A stretch of 64,000 nucleotides of DNA from Escherichia phage 241Ecol014PP. Of this stretch, positions 1 through 64,000 are shown one piece after another; within the stretch, counting starts at the first letter, position 1, and every line of letters begins with the position of its first letter. Below the pieces are notes generated by a model. It was not told the DNA's origin, made no database searches, and saw nothing but the letters and a program-made list of their open reading frames with translations. Position numbers and translations under genes: made by a program. The stretch lies in the sequence record OR062943.1; one strand, 5' to 3'.

Positions 1-37
1 TGAAAGATTCTATCGTTGTTGATGTCTGGAGGTATTA

Positions 38-3000
38 ATGCCAATTGCAATGATTGATAACATCGTTGCTTCTGCAAGATCTTCAAGTTATGACTGGAAC
101 GCATCCAAGGCAGCTCTGGCTGACAGCCTGAACACTGTTACCACCAGAACTCTGGATAAGATTTTTGAGGGCAACAAATCTTACAGAAGTCAGCAAGATA
201 GACAAAAGCTTCTCAGATCTTCTGCTGCACCTTGCTCTGTAGTGTATGGGAAGACACGCACATCCGGATTGCTTGCGTTTTTGGAGCAGGATAGCGACAG
301 AACCCTCCATTGTGCTATTGTTCTTGCTAATCATCCTCTGGAAGGTATAGAAGACATACTCATCGACGGTAATCCTATTTCCTCGTATGGAGATCTGGTA
401 TCGTGGGAGCTACATAACGACAGAAAAACATCTGATCCTTTCATGGGTACACACTGCCCATCATGGTCACCTGACATGATAGGTAGAGGGATTAGTTGGC
501 TACGTGCCAGTTTCAAGTTTGACCCTAACAAGTTTCCTTTTGGGTTGCCAAACGTTACACTCGTTAAGGTTGGTAAAAAATGCTATGATCCTCGTATCAG
601 TAAAGAGGTGTACACCAATAACGCAGCCTTGGTGATCCTAGACTATTTAAGAACGTACCTTAAATGTCCTGACGAAACCATCAACTGGGAGTCCTTTAAG
701 GAGGCTGCCAACATATGCGACGAAGCGGTAAAAAACGCTGACGGAACCAGTGAGCGACGTTACACCATTAACGGTGAGTTCGACATGGATGAGGCTCCAG
801 CAAGTATTATGGCAGAAATGTTGAAAGCTTGTGGTGCAGATCTCAGTTATGTAGCTGGTAAGTATGGTTTGCTGGTTGGTGCATACTATGGCCCGGCAAC
901 AATGACACTGAGTGAGGACTGTGTCTGCGGTGAGGTCAAGATCTATCCGGAAGCCTCGTTTGACAAAAGATCCAACACAATAACTGGCAGATTCACTAGT
1001 CCGACCAAAGGGTATTCTGAAACAGATTTTCCATCAGTGTTTGTCCCAGAGTGGATAGAGAAGGATGGAGAAAGAAAGATAATCGATATAGACTATCGCT
1101 TTGTTACCAGCCCTTATCAAGCTCAGCGTGTTTCTGCAATCTTCTTAAGACGTGCTAGAGCTGGCAGGATTATTGAAGTCACCTGCAATATGCGAGGTTT
1201 TAAATTTAAGCCTGGTCGTTATGTTACAATGGACCTCCCAAGTATTGGTATAGTGGGCCAAGAAATGAGGGTTCTTGAATGGGAGTTCACCAAAAAGGGC
1301 GGTGTCAAGGTAAAACTTCGTCAAGATGCTAAAGAGTGGAATGATGCCACAGGGCAACTTCCGGATTCCGGTGATGTAGATATTCCGATATCCCCGTCCG
1401 GTGTAGCTCAGCCGCAAAACTTCAGATACTCCGTTCTCCAAGCTGGGGAAGTAACTCACGGTGTTTTGGCTTGGGACAACGTTGGGACTTACGCTCAAAA
1501 TATTGTGCAAGTAAGAAAGAACGGAGAGATTGTTTGGACAGCACAGACAGTTGAGCAGTTTGTCAGAGTAGAAGGTTTGACCAAAGGGTCATACACAGCA
1601 ACCGTGGTTGCAACATCTTATAAAGGTGGTGTATCTCCAGAAGCGTACTGTGAGTTTAACATTCAGGCACCTGAAGCTCCGGTTTCTGTAGAGGTTAAGC
1701 AAGGATACTTTGCTATCACCTTGATTCCGCATAGTAGGGATTTAGCAAGTGTTAGCACCCAGTATGACTTTTGGACATCTGGTATGACAAGGTTGCCCGA
1801 CACCAGTGATGCAACCGTTACTTCAAACGCCACCCGTATGGGTGTTGGTTCAACTTGGACATCTGAAGGCCTGCAGAACGATAAGGTTTATTATTGGTAT
1901 ATTCGAACCACAAACGCTTTTGGTAGTTCTCAGTTTGTAGAATGCGCTGCACGTTGCTACACCTCTATTGAGGATTTGATGCCTCAGATAGATGCTGAAT
2001 TCAAAAAGACAGAAACTTATAAAGAGTTGATGAGCACTTTGGATTCCTCTATTGAAGAGGTTGAAAATCGTGTCACAGAACTTAACAGGTACATGGATGG
2101 TAGGGTAGATGAAGCGTTCCAGCAACTTGGGGACAGAATAGGTGCGGTAGTTACAGAAACAACTCAGAAGTTTGAAGATGTCAATGGTAACATTACAGCG
2201 CTGGATAGGAAACTTGTTGCTGCACAGAACAAGTTCACCAACGATCTGAACACTGAAAGTGGAAGATTGGCATCCCTGATTGAGACAACCAATAAAGCAA
2301 CTACTGATCTTCTGAACAAAAAGACAGAGGCTTTAGATGAGAAATTGGTTGCCGCCAAAGGTGAGCTGGTAGAGCAGATAGAGGGAGTTGAGAGCGGGTA
2401 TTTAGCCGGAGATAAAACTCTGGATGGTAAGATCAATACCCAGAGAACAGAACTTGACGCAAGCATCTTGAGCACTAACCAGGCCACTGTGGATCTTTTG
2501 AACAGGACATCTGAAACTCTGGATCAAAAGATCAGTCAGACAAACGCGACGGTATCTAAAAACTATACCACCCTGGATGGCAAGATAACCACCGCAAAAA
2601 CTGACCTCAACACCTTGATTGCCAATACCAACAAGACCACCACTGACTTGTTGAATCAGAAAACATCTGCACTGTCAGAGCAAATAACTTCTGCACGTGG
2701 GGAGATCTCTACCAACAAGCAAGCGATTGATGCTTTGGATGGAAAACTGACCTCCACAAAAACAGCGCTGGATGCTACAATTTCCGATACCAACAAGGCC
2801 ACTGTGGACCTTATCAACGGCACAGCGTCAGCTATTCGTCAAGAACTTGCTGTTGCTAAGCAGGAGATCATTGATGATGTTGGAGATGTGTCCGAGATCA
2901 GGGCTGCAGTAGCTACAACATCTAAGGCTGTGACCGACTTAGAGGGTAAAGTAAATGCTCAGTGGGGCACAAAAATACAGGTAGACTCCGCAGGGAATAA

Positions 3001-3877
3001 ATATGTTGCAGGTATCCAGTTGGGGATGGAAGGGTCTGGGGGCCAAGTTCAATCCTACTTCATGGTTAGTGCAAACAATTTTGCGGTATACAACCCCGGC
3101 AATGGAACAGCAACCCTTGCTTTCGCAATCAAGAACAACCAAGCATTCTTGAAAGACGCTTTTATAGAGAATGGCACGATCTCCTCTGCCAAGATCGCAC
3201 AAGAAATTTCGTCAAACAACTACGATGGCAACGGGTACCATAAATACGGTTGGTATATTAACAAGAACGGGCACGCCCAATTTATGGATGTGTGGGTGAA
3301 AGGCAACATCAACGCTAGTTCTGGTAACTTCACAGGGGCAGTTAACGCCACTAGTGGTACCTTCCGTGGAGATGTTTATGCCAATAATGGTAGCTTCAGG
3401 GGCACCATAGATGCAACCGGAGGTACCTTCCGTGGGCGTGTAGAAGCTTCTGTTATTCGTGCCAACCAGTTTGAAGGTGCAATTGTTGCACACAGGACTT
3501 ACGGGGATTGTGCACCAGTATACAACTCCCGGCAGAGGGTTTGCCGTTGGAGGTGGAGATACGTAGATAACGTTTCAGGTCAGGGTAAGAACGTAACATT
3601 CTTCTTTAAACTGAACGGTACTCGTGCCAACTCCCAACTAAATGCGTGGATAGCTGGTCATCAACTCCTTGCTGGCAAGAAGTACGGAAACGACAACGAT
3701 GGCATGTGTGCAGTTGGGATAACAGGTCTAGGTGAACAAACTATAGACATTATTATTGAAATCTACACCCCGTGGTCAACGTCAAACGTGACAGGTATTA
3801 CAATATCCTGTCCTACTGTGGTTGTTAGTCGTTCTAACTCCAGCTTCCAGGGACCTTGGAACGAGTCTCACGACTAA
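38..3877 (+). CDS. large tail/baseplate-associated fibre protein (host-specificity-like)
   Basis: 1279-aa ORF, GGAGG RBS upstream of ATG; central ~35-aa coiled-coil tandem repeats (LDGKITT..TDLLN), C-terminal TFRG/GxF beta repeats; terminator follows. Confidence 0.6.
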   Translation: MPIAMIDNIVASARSSSYDWNASKAALADSLNTVTTRTLDKIFEGNKSYRSQQDRQKLLRSSAAPCSVVYGKTRTSGLLAFLEQDSDRTLHCAIVLANHPLEGIEDILIDGNPISSYGDLVSWELHNDRKTSDPFMGTHCPSWSPDMIGRGISWLRASFKFDPNKFPFGLPNVTLVKVGKKCYDPRISKEVYTNNAALVILDYLRTYLKCPDETINWESFKEAANICDEAVKNADGTSERRYTINGEFDMDEAPASIMAEMLKACGADLSYVAGKYGLLVGAYYGPATMTLSEDCVCGEVKIYPEASFDKRSNTITGRFTSPTKGYSETDFPSVFVPEWIEKDGERKIIDIDYRFVTSPYQAQRVSAIFLRRARAGRIIEVTCNMRGFKFKPGRYVTMDLPSIGIVGQEMRVLEWEFTKKGGVKVKLRQDAKEWNDATGQLPDSGDVDIPISPSGVAQPQNFRYSVLQAGEVTHGVLAWDNVGTYAQNIVQVRKNGEIVWTAQTVEQFVRVEGLTKGSYTATVVATSYKGGVSPEAYCEFNIQAPEAPVSVEVKQGYFAITLIPHSRDLASVSTQYDFWTSGMTRLPDTSDATVTSNATRMGVGSTWTSEGLQNDKVYYWYIRTTNAFGSSQFVECAARCYTSIEDLMPQIDAEFKKTETYKELMSTLDSSIEEVENRVTELNRYMDGRVDEAFQQLGDRIGAVVTETTQKFEDVNGNITALDRKLVAAQNKFTNDLNTESGRLASLIETTNKATTDLLNKKTEALDEKLVAAKGELVEQIEGVESGYLAGDKTLDGKINTQRTELDASILSTNQATVDLLNRTSETLDQKISQTNATVSKNYTTLDGKITTAKTDLNTLIANTNKTTTDLLNQKTSALSEQITSARGEISTNKQAIDALDGKLTSTKTALDATISDTNKATVDLINGTASAIRQELAVAKQEIIDDVGDVSEIRAAVATTSKAVTDLEGKVNAQWGTKIQVDSAGNKYVAGIQLGMEGSGGQVQSYFMVSANNFAVYNPGNGTATLAFAIKNNQAFLKDAFIENGTISSAKIAQEISSNNYDGNGYHKYGWYINKNGHAQFMDVWVKGNINASSGNFTGAVNATSGTFRGDVYANNGSFRGTIDATGGTFRGRVEASVIRANQFEGAIVAHRTYGDCAPVYNSRQRVCRWRWRYVDNVSGQGKNVTFFFKLNGTRANSQLNAWIAGHQLLAGKKYGNDNDGMCAVGITGLGEQTIDIIIEIYTPWSTSNVTGITISCPTVVVSRSNSSFQGPWNESHD

Positions 3878-3885
3878 CCTTTAAA

Positions 3886-3912
3886 GCCCCGCTTCGGCGG
3901 GGTTTATTTTTA
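3886..3912 (+). terminator. rho-independent terminator
   Basis: hairpin CCCCGC-TTCG-GCGGGG followed by TTTATTTTT, 9 nt after stop. Confidence 0.75.
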
Positions 3913-3920
3913 TGCTCAGA

Positions 3921-3949
3921 TTGACTATTGTTACAAAATTTGGTAAAAT
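3921..3949 (+). promoter_or_regulatory. sigma70-like promoter
   Basis: TTGACT, 17-nt spacer, TAAAAT; upstream of GTG start at 3983. Confidence 0.5.
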
Positions 3950-3982
3950 ACCTTGTAGAGATTTTCATACCGGAGGAGTGAC

Positions 3983-5473
3983 GTGGCTAAGTATGGATTG
4001 ACAGAGGCTGGTTTCGTTATACCAACCCTAAATGACCTAATCGTTGAAACTAAGCAAAGCCTGATCCGTGCTTTTGGCGAAAACTTCAACGTACAGAGTA
4101 ACTCCGTTGCAGATAAGCTGACCACTATCTTCAACGAGCGAGAGTATCAACTTATTCTTATGGCAGCATCTGTATACGCATCACAGACGCTGTATGGGGC
4201 AGAAGGTATTTACCTAGATGAGCTTCTTGGAAGACAGGGTATTTACCGAAGAGGCCGTTCTAAATCATCAGGTACCTGCCAGTTGACAATCAACACAACT
4301 GTGCCGTACAATATGATTTATGATTCCAAAACTTATACGCTGGACAGTGGCAACTTTGTTCTTAGTAATGATGTGCAAGTAGCAGGGAATCTTATTGCTC
4401 ACAGAATAAATGCTCCAGACCTAAGGATTGGGAAATACAACTTCCAAATTACCAACCAAACAGACGGAAGTATCAAAACAAAAAGCCTGGTTTTAACAGA
4501 TAAGTCTCTGGACTCTTCTGATTTGCCAAGCTTTTACGGAGAGATTAAGCAATTCATTGTCGATAATACAACCCTGTTGAACGACGATTTGATTCAGATC
4601 GATATGTTGACAGGAACGTTGTGGATAGGGTACAATTCGAATCTTGATCAAGTTGGGCTTAACAGCAGGGTAGATTTCAGAGTATCCCCGATTGTAGGGG
4701 AAAGAACTATCACACTGGATGTTATCGCTAACGAGGCTGGTGAGCTGTCAAGAGAGGCAGAAACCGTGACAACAATGTCACCTACTCCCAGTGGATTCAT
4801 CAAGCTTACCAACCGAGAAAGATTCAATGAGGGCAGGGATGTTGAGAAAGACTCAGAGTATCGCTTAAGAGCTTCCAGCACAAAACAGTTAACATCTAAG
4901 GCTACCCGTCCTGCAATCCTTAGCGCTGTAAGCGAGGTGAAAGGTGTTGAGAAAGTGAGAGTGTTCTCCAACAACACCGATAAAACTGATGCTAAAGGTA
5001 TACCTCCTTACAAGTTCCAAGTGGTTGTGTTTGGTGGTGCAACGGAGGACATTTGCCAAGCACTTTACCAAACTATAGCCTGTACGAACAGGACTTATGG
5101 TAATATTTTCTACGATGTAACTACATCTGACGGTCAAACTGAAAGAATTTATTACTCCAAGGCAAATACCTACCGCCTAGATGTAAGAATTACCTACTCC
5201 GGTGCCGCACTTTCCACAACAGAAAAAGATGCCATTGTAGAGGCTCTTTTGCAGGTTGTTAACGGACTGGATGTTGCAGATACGTTGTATAATATCCAAT
5301 TGGTCGGTGCTGCATCTGCTGCTGTGTCAATAGGCAGATTTAATAGACTGGTAATTCAAGTTAAGCCAGTAGGAGCTTCTGATGAAGCTTACACTACAAA
5401 CGATATTGTTGCGAACATGACCGAGGTGTTTGACCTCGACGAAAGTAATATAACTTTCCAACAAACTATTTAA
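3983..5473 (+). CDS. baseplate wedge protein (Baseplate_J / gp6-like)
   Basis: 496-aa ORF, GTG start 5 nt after GGAGG; N-terminal region resembles baseplate J family as recalled; position in tail module. Confidence 0.45.
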   Translation: MAKYGLTEAGFVIPTLNDLIVETKQSLIRAFGENFNVQSNSVADKLTTIFNEREYQLILMAASVYASQTLYGAEGIYLDELLGRQGIYRRGRSKSSGTCQLTINTTVPYNMIYDSKTYTLDSGNFVLSNDVQVAGNLIAHRINAPDLRIGKYNFQITNQTDGSIKTKSLVLTDKSLDSSDLPSFYGEIKQFIVDNTTLLNDDLIQIDMLTGTLWIGYNSNLDQVGLNSRVDFRVSPIVGERTITLDVIANEAGELSREAETVTTMSPTPSGFIKLTNRERFNEGRDVEKDSEYRLRASSTKQLTSKATRPAILSAVSEVKGVEKVRVFSNNTDKTDAKGIPPYKFQVVVFGGATEDICQALYQTIACTNRTYGNIFYDVTTSDGQTERIYYSKANTYRLDVRITYSGAALSTTEKDAIVEALLQVVNGLDVADTLYNIQLVGAASAAVSIGRFNRLVIQVKPVGASDEAYTTNDIVANMTEVFDLDESNITFQQTI

Positions 5474-62536: not shown

Positions 62537-62800
62537 ATGAAACGTCTTGATCAGCTCAAATTAGTTCAATATATGGCTTATCGTGTTCTTGAAGTCCAGA
62601 AAGGTAGCAAAAAAGAGGTTTGCGAGAAAGCTTATAAGATCTTCACTCGCAAAAAAGATGACTGGATGCTGCGCCAGACTAAAAAGGCTGACATCTTGGG
62701 GTACCTGGAAGAAGAGATCCGCCTTGAAGAGCAAGAAGAGATCCGCCGTAGTGAGGCAGATTATCAGGCAGCTTGGGAAAACTGGATGAGCAACAAATAA
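62537..62800 (+). CDS. hypothetical protein
   Basis: 87-aa ORF with AAAGAGGAAAA RBS. Confidence 0.4.
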   Translation: MKRLDQLKLVQYMAYRVLEVQKGSKKEVCEKAYKIFTRKKDDWMLRQTKKADILGYLEEEIRLEEQEEIRRSEADYQAAWENWMSNK

Positions 62801-62819: not shown

Positions 62820-62845
62820 AGGGGCTTAAAGCCCCTTTCTTTTTG
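62820..62845 (+). terminator. rho-independent terminator
   Basis: AGGGGC-TTAAA-GCCCCT then TTCTTTTTG. Confidence 0.75.
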
Positions 62846-63449
62846 TCCGCTATTCCCTATCACAAACGGCCCCGCCTGACAAGTGGAATAATCAACAAGC
62901 CAGCAATTTCCCACACTGTACAAACATACAGGTAAAATAACTATTGCATAATTTTTCATTGTGTGGTAGCAGGGCCATTTTTACCCGTTTTTCCTCCCAA
63001 AATTGCACGTAATGCCGCTATTGCATAAATTTTAACCTGATGCACATCTTCAATATCTTGTCAACAAATAAAAATTCTTATAAGTCATACACTTACATAA
63101 CCACAAAAGCGCGTTCTACGTGAAAAATCGAGTATAACTATAGCCGCCAGATCTCAGAATTTACGTACGCTCACCATTCTATAGCCTGCTAAGTATTTAT
63201 TCCAACCATAGAATAACGGAATAGTCAATACCTGCATAAAATAATTATTCGTTTAAATTGCATAACATAAATCAGCCAGGGTGTCAACATTTTTCGTAAA
63301 CAGTCCGAAATTATCACTGTGAGTTATCATAAACAGAGAAATCTTTAGTCGTCTAATGTTTACTGTACGTTACTATACTAACCGGAATCATTAGATGACT
63401 AATAGAAAAGATAAGAAATAATCAACAATACAATTATTTTATCTGTAAC

Positions 63450-63680
63450 AATAAGGCAACTATGCAAACGAATGGCATGGCGCGACGGAGTCGCGACATA
63501 ATATAAAAGCAGTAACCATCACCCCCGTGATAGTTTGTCTGCAAACTATTAATCAGATCATAGTTGCCTTGTATTTAGTTAATCATGACATAACAAGCAA
63601 GGCAACTATAGATCTTCTAATAGTTGCCTTGCTTTTATATTATGTCATAAATTATTAACATGCAAACGAATGGCATGGCT
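63450..63680. repeat. operator-like repeat cluster (coordinates approximate)
   Basis: 11-mer AAGGCAACTAT in four alternating-orientation copies; 19-mer TGCAAACGAATGGCATGGC twice; 17-bp inverted pair GACATAATATAAAAGCA / TGCTTTTATATTATGTC. Confidence 0.55.
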
Positions 63681-63714
63681 TATCATTTTTGAGTAAATAG
63701 TCTACACGTGAACA

Positions 63715-63860
63715 GTTAGCTATGTAAACTATTAGTCATGTAAACCGTTAGGCATGTAAACAGTAGAGGGAGTGAATAGTGACAGCGTAAACAGTCAGGC
63801 ATGTCAATTATGTCAATCGTGTCAGTTATGTCACAGTATGTCTAAAGTGTCAGACAAGTT
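63715..63860. repeat. iteron-like periodic repeats (coordinates approximate)
   Basis: ATGTAAAC at 16-bp period (3-4 copies) then six 9-bp-period TGTCA units. Confidence 0.55.
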
Positions 63861-64000
63861 TTTCTCCTCTTTGTCAAGTGCTGCATGAAAAATTTACAAA
63901 CTGGTATGGTAGCATTTTTGCGGCCCTGTTTACATTCAGTAATGTATGTATGACCCTTGTTGTGTGGGCGTTTAGACGTCTAGACGGTTGGAAGTCTACA

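Follow-up and report, generated by a model that had tools for sequence, protein, structure and literature searches.

To our knowledge, the recognition, cutting, and duplication of genome ends in phages with short exact terminal repeats are understood in detail only for T7 and T3. Direct inspection of T7 reveals that the 160-bp terminal repeat is directly followed by CCTAAAG units, which recur at 13-bp intervals between positions 175 and 341. The right end has an imperfect 19-nt palindrome whose center lies ~190 bp before the repeat, with short repeats between the two. The short-repeat arrays of T7 are those reportedly named SRL and SRR by Dunn and Studier in 1983. Short repeated sites beside a defined cut are likewise known from the R sites of lambda cosB, the pac hexamers of P1, and pacL/pacR of SPP1, although these phages rely on cohesive ends or headful packaging, whereas an exact terminal repeat is at issue here. 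Terminases in general bind beside their cut site (PMC3896407). For duplication of the T7 repeat, one article sets out a proposed route that uses nicks together with strand displacement or priming and involves a hairpin intermediate; such an intermediate, containing the terminal repeat, is stated there to have been reported in T7 infection (PMC4281155, citing Molineux 2006 and Chung and Hinkle 1990).

Among the vequintaviruses, terminal redundancies of 458 bp were reported for HdK5 and EdH4 by Korf et al. (PMC6563267), and 459-bp terminal repeats with a fixed packaging start were reported for Gotham by Dias et al. (PMC7471380). For Klebsiella phage KPP-1, which belongs to another genus, a direct terminal repeat (DTR) of 514 bp was established via twofold coverage and PhageTerm (PMC9862379). 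The rV5 genome paper of 2013 treated that genome as circularly permuted and drew the zone of interest only as a "non-coding" box (PMC3606486). Two later reports, on bov10K2 (in a table) and on BpE1AUH, call vequintavirus genomes permuted or headful-packaged. Such reports are evidence against fixed ends, yet weaker evidence than the exact repeats that have been deposited. The vequintavirus terminal repeat and the existence of a non-coding zone are thus already on record. The DTR reports give the repeat length only (PMC6563267, PMC7471380, PMC9862379), and neither they nor the rV5 paper (PMC3606486) describe the repeats that flank it or how these are conserved.

Presented here is an analysis of the DNA that adjoins this repeat in Escherichia phage 241Ecol014PP. 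The window is the entire 64-kb stretch of the phage DNA that was analyzed, and the region of interest is its last 1.2 kb. The region proves to be a close architectural counterpart of the flanks of the T7 terminal repeat. Its architecture, namely an invariant palindromic module bounded by 20-bp repeats, two-tier polar arrays, and hypervariability confined to the DTR flanks, was not found described earlier; the literature search returned neither a description of the flanking repeats nor a transcriptome of an rV5-like phage.

Location of the region and its boundary with the terminal repeat

The window originates from a member of the genus Vequintavirus (rV5-like myoviruses of E. coli), to which all 119 matching phage records belong. 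Over the last 1.2 kb these records are 87-93% identical to the window, the closest being I29 at 92.6%, with none nearer in the phage collection. Fourteen sequences were aligned, and 17 were compared later. Eighteen of the 119 matches are GenBank records named "Campylobacter phage" (MG0656xx). In these the region is 76-90% identical to the window, and the DTR is 93-95% identical to that of the E. coli vequintaviruses. The host label is doubtful, and the one such record that was opened carries an UNVERIFIED mark.

The coordinates of the features are provided in Table 1. The left edge of the gene-free zone is an intrinsic terminator that closes the last rightward gene and is annotated at the equivalent site in HdK5, Murica, Alma, and Gotham. 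In every annotated relative the rightward genes stop at this terminator, a mostly gene-free zone of ~2.5 kb follows, and leftward genes then begin, such that transcription from both sides runs toward the terminal-repeat zone. The last rightward gene is labeled "DNA translocase FtsK" in phages inoa and naam, a label that lacks Pfam or PHROGs support (phrog_11701, function not known), and in those two databases the gene gives no lead to a binding protein. Most relatives carry a 139-aa gene (phrog_12277, function not known) between it and the terminator; this gene is missing from the window, HdK5, Alma, and FV3.

Table 1. Coordinates of the features in and beside the region, numbered from the first base of the window.
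Feature	Position	Strand	Basis or remarks
Last rightward gene	62537-62800		87-aa ORF
Intrinsic terminator	62820-62846	+	7-bp stem, 5 G-C pairs, then TTCTTTTTGT
Conserved collinear non-coding DNA	62847-63445	.	~91% identity, 14 relatives
GTAAAC-type motifs within it	63296; 63358	+; -	
Imperfect 22-nt inverted repeat within it	63345-63366 / 63381-63402		
AT-richest stretch of the region	63400-63459		20% GC
Palindromic module (module A), 235 bp	63446-63680	.	Repeats and conservation
AAGGCAACTAT, four exact copies	63453; 63560; 63599; 63620	+; -; +; -	
ATGCAAACGAATGGCATGGC, 20-mer direct repeats	63462-63481; 63660-63679		Bound module A
Three short hairpins in module A	63481-63495; 63514-63535; 63532-63547		
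17-nt perfect inverted pair	63495-63511 / 63630-63646		Arms 118 nt apart
Insertion hot spots of module A	63589/63590 and 63649/63650		Alignment with relatives
15-nt palindrome arms	63595-63609 / 63620-63634		Center 63614/63615
GTRAAY (ATGTAAAC-type) array	63693-63792	+	Seven units, 15-16 bp spacing, direct orientation
ATGTAAAC units	63722; 63738; 63754		
(R)TGTCA array	63793-63852	+	Spacing 9-10 bp, direct orientation, last unit ends at DTR boundary
TGTCA, four copies	63802-63829		9 bp apart
Degenerate TGTCT, then TGTCA	63839; 63848		
First 148 bp of the 459-bp DTR	63853-64000	.	Homology to HdK5 DTR
Inverted GTAAACAG in the DTR	63926-63933		
Tandem MetJ-box-like AGACGTCTAGACGGTT in the DTR	63974-63989		

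The original prediction held that no ORF of 60 aa or more exists after position 62959, and indeed no complete one was found. A correction concerns an incomplete ORF in the DTR that starts at GTG 63878 and exits the window end. It is annotated in FFH2 and A51.2 and measures 67 aa in 10 of the 17 sequences, but it was rejected as a gene since it is cut or frameshifted in the remaining seven (to 42, 24, or 56 aa) and is not preceded by a ribosome-binding site. A 43-aa ORF in module A, with a GTG start and no ribosome-binding site, was rejected as well. The six small-ORF candidates of the region matched no Pfam family above threshold, and a tRNA search of the region found none.

At least seven deposited relatives, in which the DTR has been mapped or annotated, open with the same 459-bp repeat: HdK5, EdH4, Gotham, YN3, bov22_2, bov10K2, and bov25_3. 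The HdK5 record contains an exact repeat of 459 bp common to both ends, and the Gotham record is annotated with a repeat_region at 1..459. The first five of these phages that are named above share the same first base and the same sequence, and bov10K2 and bov25_3 match at an offset equal to that of HdK5 and EdH4. The exact DTRs were deposited under four record prefixes, two of which are tied to separate publications.

A comparison with the terminal regions of related phages, suggested in the original prediction as a check, places the mapped DTR start of these relatives inside the region at position 63853, where the repeat opens with GACAAGTTTTTCTCC. Window positions 63853-63997 are 93% identical to positions 1-145 of the HdK5 DTR, and according to this alignment the repeat extends ~311 bp beyond the window end. 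The DTR is present at 93% identity or better in 119 of the 119 records. Its inner boundary falls at 63852/63853, with the sequence TGTCA/GACAAG, and the junction GTCA/GACAAG occurs in 16 of the 17 sequences. The ECP2303 record is linearized exactly at this boundary (...GTGTCA/). On the basis of homology to these relatives, phage 241Ecol014PP itself is predicted to have fixed ends and the DTR. The proposal that this DNA is "a control region or genome terminus" has accordingly held in its second half, given the DTR start and the ECP2303 terminus, and not in its first. From the comparisons it is well supported that the last 1.2 kb of the window would constitute non-coding DNA directly inside one end of a Vequintavirus genome.

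The DTRs of HdK5 and EdH4 and that of Gotham are the same sequence with homologous boundaries, and the KPP-1 boundary is homologous as well: when the ends of KPP-1 and HdK5 were compared by hand, the only cross-genus comparison made, both aligned within 1-2 nt. Searches by blastn with the DTR and with module A returned no match beyond the genus Vequintavirus.

Several other observations were made in and around the DTR. The MetJ-box-like sequence resembles two tandem MetJ "met boxes" (2x AGACGTCT) with two mismatches; relatives conserve it, and no second match occurs in the window (0.11 expected). Shigella phage CM1 (MK962749) displays at 3377-4422 a perfect tandem duplication of a 523-bp unit (0 mismatches), in which the final 64 bp of the TGTCA array are joined to the 459-bp DTR. 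This is probably an assembly artifact at the repeat; if real, it would represent a mis-processed end. In I29 (ON286975), at ~4238-4517, a further, partial DTR copy comes after an inverted-duplication junction, GACAGGTAGAGTATGCATACTCTACCTGTC; the arrangement looks like a chimeric-read assembly artifact beside the DTR. On the far flank of the DTR, outside of the window, short duplications of the boundary-adjacent GGCAGCACTCC are observed in some relatives, and the non-coding DNA of this flank contains four copies of CTCTTCAGG. In HdK5, the non-coding junction 1014-1363 bp past the DTR start is 97-100% identical across 12 relatives, a conservation that tops that of module A.

The palindromic module and the direct-repeat arrays

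The segment between the terminator and module A is collinear among the relatives, with an identity slightly under that of the neighboring genes (93-97%). The GTAAAC-type motifs, two of which it contains, cluster between ~730 bp before the DTR and 1200 bp after it, with few copies in other places. The only hypervariable part of the region lies at 63681-63852, where ~42% of the bases are identical in the top BLAST HSP. From 63853 on, the identity returns abruptly to 95% or better, such that conservation shifts sharply at the DTR boundary itself, from hypervariable arrays to a DTR at 95%.

Module A is near-invariant in the 14-sequence alignment and kept in 118 of the 119 records. It is at least 95% identical in 96 of the 119, the lower values stemming from two insertion sites, and ~99% identical outside of the indels. 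At these hot spots a 33-bp insert is found in rV5, LL12, and A147, and an insert of 60-95 bp with two G+C-rich hairpins is found in 8 of 14 relatives; the latter is annotated as a terminator in Murica.

The repeats of the module are largely those claimed in the original prediction. All four alternating copies of AAGGCAACTAT are exact, and at one mismatch or fewer the motif has seven matches in the 64-kb window versus 1.5 expected. The near-perfect palindrome has arms of 15 nt that are 100% complementary. What had been described as two copies of a 19-mer is indeed present twice, but as the 20-mer ATGCAAACGAATGGCATGGC, which is absent from the rest of the window. The claimed 17-bp inverted pair is perfect, and its 17-mer occurs nowhere else in the 64 kb.

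As a single strand, module A folds far better than shuffled sequences, on both strands and whether RNA or DNA parameters are used (z about -8), and its four 11-mers (AAGGCAACTAT) permit alternative pairings. Such stable folding is expected from DNA palindromes and is by itself no argument for an RNA. In the one phage that departs from this pattern, FV3 (NC_019517, 2520-2560, equivalent to window 63462-63679), a single 20-mer remains and exactly 198 bp between the ATGCAAACGAATGGCATGGC copies are missing, so that the 17-nt inverted pair and all but one of the four AAGGCAACTAT sites are gone. This loss is the product expected of recombination between direct repeats. Either the interior of the module is dispensable, or the deletion arose in cloning or assembly. 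The module was rejected as a mobile element, since none of 5,426 complete E. coli genomes carries it; in IMG/VR only two extra loci were found, both vequintavirus-like. On the same side of its DTR, KPP-1 has an analogue, a 21-nt perfect inverted pair with arms 164 nt apart, ~300 bp from the boundary.

The arrays fill the hypervariable segment. The ATGTAAAC units, for which a spacing of 16 bp had been claimed, are exactly 16 bp apart, and degenerate GTRAAY units lengthen this array to seven. The six TGTCA units said to be spaced by 9 bp require some revision, since four are exactly so spaced and the sixth, at 63872, is out of phase. Periodic runs such as those observed were reached in 0 of 1000 dinucleotide shuffles of the region, and four of the five copies of GTAAACAG in the window fall within it. 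Taken together, the repeats listed in the original prediction are all present, confined to the region, and above chance. Among the 17 sequences the array zone varies from 106 to 219 bp, with 1 to 8 GTRAAY units and 2 to 7 TGTCA units per relative. The units share one orientation, toward the boundary, and both motifs and orientation are retained in 17 of 17. In 16 of the 17 the last TGTCA unit ends at GTCA/GACAAG, and the array motif recurs inside the DTR. The equivalent DTR flank of KPP-1 has no TGTCA or GTRAAY arrays.

The likeness to T7 is one of layout. In both phages the order is palindrome, short-repeat array, and terminal repeat, with the palindrome centered 238 bp before the DTR here and ~190 bp before it in T7. 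In both, the arrays abut the terminal repeat, motif copies occur inside of the repeat, and the fixed ends carry a short exact repeat. The units themselves are unrelated, with CCTAAAG at 13-bp intervals in T7 as opposed to GTRAAY and TGTCA here, at intervals of 16 and 9 bp, respectively. Whereas T7 has arrays on both flanks, here one flank carries the long array and the other only one or two duplicated units. Furthermore, the phage under study is, unlike T7, a 137-kb myovirus whose genes converge on the genome end. In T7, end processing is tied to the RNA polymerase that the phage itself encodes. For rV5, by contrast, only host-type (sigma-70) promoters were found genome-wide (PMC3606486).

Proposed packaging signals and competing explanations

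Our reading, held with somewhat better than even confidence, is that the region contains signals acting in cis when concatemers are cut, the DTR is duplicated, and the DNA is packaged, rather than signals for gene control. It is favored because the arrays stop at the mapped end, the units are polar, the motif recurs in the DTR, and no transcript needs control. Under such a scheme, 63852/63853 would be one of the two sites at which replicated concatemers are nicked or cut. The TGTCA and GTRAAY units would dock a multimeric protein, the most plausible candidate being the small terminase subunit together with the large one, and the docked protein would set the cut at the last TGTCA. Module A, with its center ~240 bp inside the boundary, might be a specific recognition site or a hairpin-forming element in duplication of the DTR. 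The element read by the terminase could be module A, the conserved first 50 bp of the DTR, or the arrays. Slippage, or cuts made now and then at an upstream unit and followed by recombination between unequal repeats, would most easily account for the instability of the arrays. The comparisons show where the region lies, its boundary, its pattern of conservation, and a T7-like layout; which protein binds and what each element does are inferred from these.

Besides the reports of permuted or headful-packaged genomes, several observations count against the packaging reading. Counts of 1 to 8 GTRAAY and 2 to 7 TGTCA units, among phages that are ~95% identical elsewhere, are unexpected for a strictly required recognition site. 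The corresponding flank of KPP-1 is free of arrays. Finally, FV3 lacks most of module A, and the module may thus be dispensable unless that deletion is an artifact.

If the region were instead a replication origin, the short repeats would be iterons for a phage initiator, the AT-richest stretch an unwinding element, and the palindromes auxiliary sites. The clustered direct repeats, the adjacent stretch of 20% GC, the palindromes, the lack of genes, and the genus-wide conservation would all suit such a function. Direct repeats beside an AT-rich stretch in a gene-free zone are indeed shared with the iteron origins of lambda (ori), P1 (oriR), and plasmids. A skew change at the zone was noted in the rV5 paper, but its authors credit it to the switch in transcription direction (PMC3606486). 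The region differs from iteron origins in that its units are 5-8 bp long at spacings of 9 and 16 bp, not 17-22 bp at helical multiples, their number shifts from one close relative to another, and the array stops precisely where the DTR begins. No DnaA box (one mismatch or fewer) occurs in the region, all 28 matches in the window being elsewhere, and with transcription convergent, forks leaving the zone would meet both flanking transcription units head-on. An origin is for these reasons considered unlikely, although a phage-specific initiator is conceivable. The term "iterons" in the original prediction is apt as a description of short direct repeats, but not in the sense of origin iterons, given the unit size, spacing, and unstable copy number.

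It is similarly improbable that the repeats are mere by-products, with the arrays arising from slippage or from imprecise nicking and repair where the DTR begins, and module A being a neutral or selfish palindromic insertion between 20-bp direct repeats. The rapid turnover of array length and unit number could be so explained, as could the short boundary-adjacent duplications on the other DTR flank, the loss of the module interior in FV3, apparently by recombination between the 20-mers, and the two small insertion hot spots within the module. However, 118 of 119 records keep module A near-invariant beside non-coding DNA that is ~9% different, and unit motifs and orientation are kept in all 17 sequences despite the turnover. 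The search of 5,426 complete E. coli genomes, moreover, gave no sign of mobility.

Alternatively, module A might encode a structured RNA of ~125 nt on the minus strand, with the AAGGCAACTAT palindrome as its operator. An extended -10 promoter-like site (63666 to 63639) and a terminator-like hairpin (63535 to 63514) share this strand and are correctly ordered, and the predicted fold is very stable (z = -8.1). In addition, the only common substitution in the palindrome, a change of T to C at 63629 that 13 of 14 sequences carry, leaves a G-U pair intact on the minus strand but not on the plus strand. However, the fold of the plus strand is just as good (z = -8.3), as is expected of DNA palindromes, and promoter-like sites overall are not above chance. 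In 8 of 14 relatives the 60-95-bp insertion splits the -35 from the -10 element. Rfam 15 searched with permissive thresholds gave nothing above noise, the only matches being sub-threshold hairpins of eukaryotic miRNA models. Module A, being invariant, provides no covariation signal, and an RNA would not explain why the arrays halt at the DTR boundary. We regard this possibility as decidedly unlikely.

A control region with palindromic operators and promoter-like TTGTCA/TTGACA elements, as originally predicted, is not supported, since the sigma-70 scan yielded 9 promoter-like sites versus 6.8 ± 2.9 expected, which is the chance level, and since the flanking genes converge on the zone and thus leave nothing downstream for promoters or operators to control. 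Nor does the region fit a lambda-like cos/cosB site, for no IHF consensus was found in the region and the relatives have a terminal repeat, not cohesive ends; the unstable copy number of the units also distinguishes the region from the lambda, P1, and SPP1 sites.

To return to the packaging reading, a more specific version of it can be entertained as a long shot. The arrays might be a fast-evolving element of packaging specificity, acting as a polar docking track for the terminase with units that diverge in number and sequence among phages otherwise ~95% identical, and module A might form a snap-back hairpin that primes duplication of the DTR.

Implications for vequintavirus genomes

The region reveals no new kind of system. 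Vequintaviruses are, however, widely used in the biocontrol of E. coli O157 and in phage collections, and many vequintavirus records have been deposited as "circularly permuted." The conserved TGTCA/GACAAG junction provides a landmark with which to orient such genomes and to spot assembly artifacts at the DTR. The anatomy of the region, with its invariant module, variable polar arrays, and DTR, offers defined targets for terminase-binding and packaging assays. If the snap-back hairpin and docking track described above proved to be true, the hairpin priming proposed for T7 would be extended to a large myovirus with only host-type promoters reported. The separation of co-infecting vequintaviruses, or of satellites and defense systems that read the packaging site, would then have an explanation as well.
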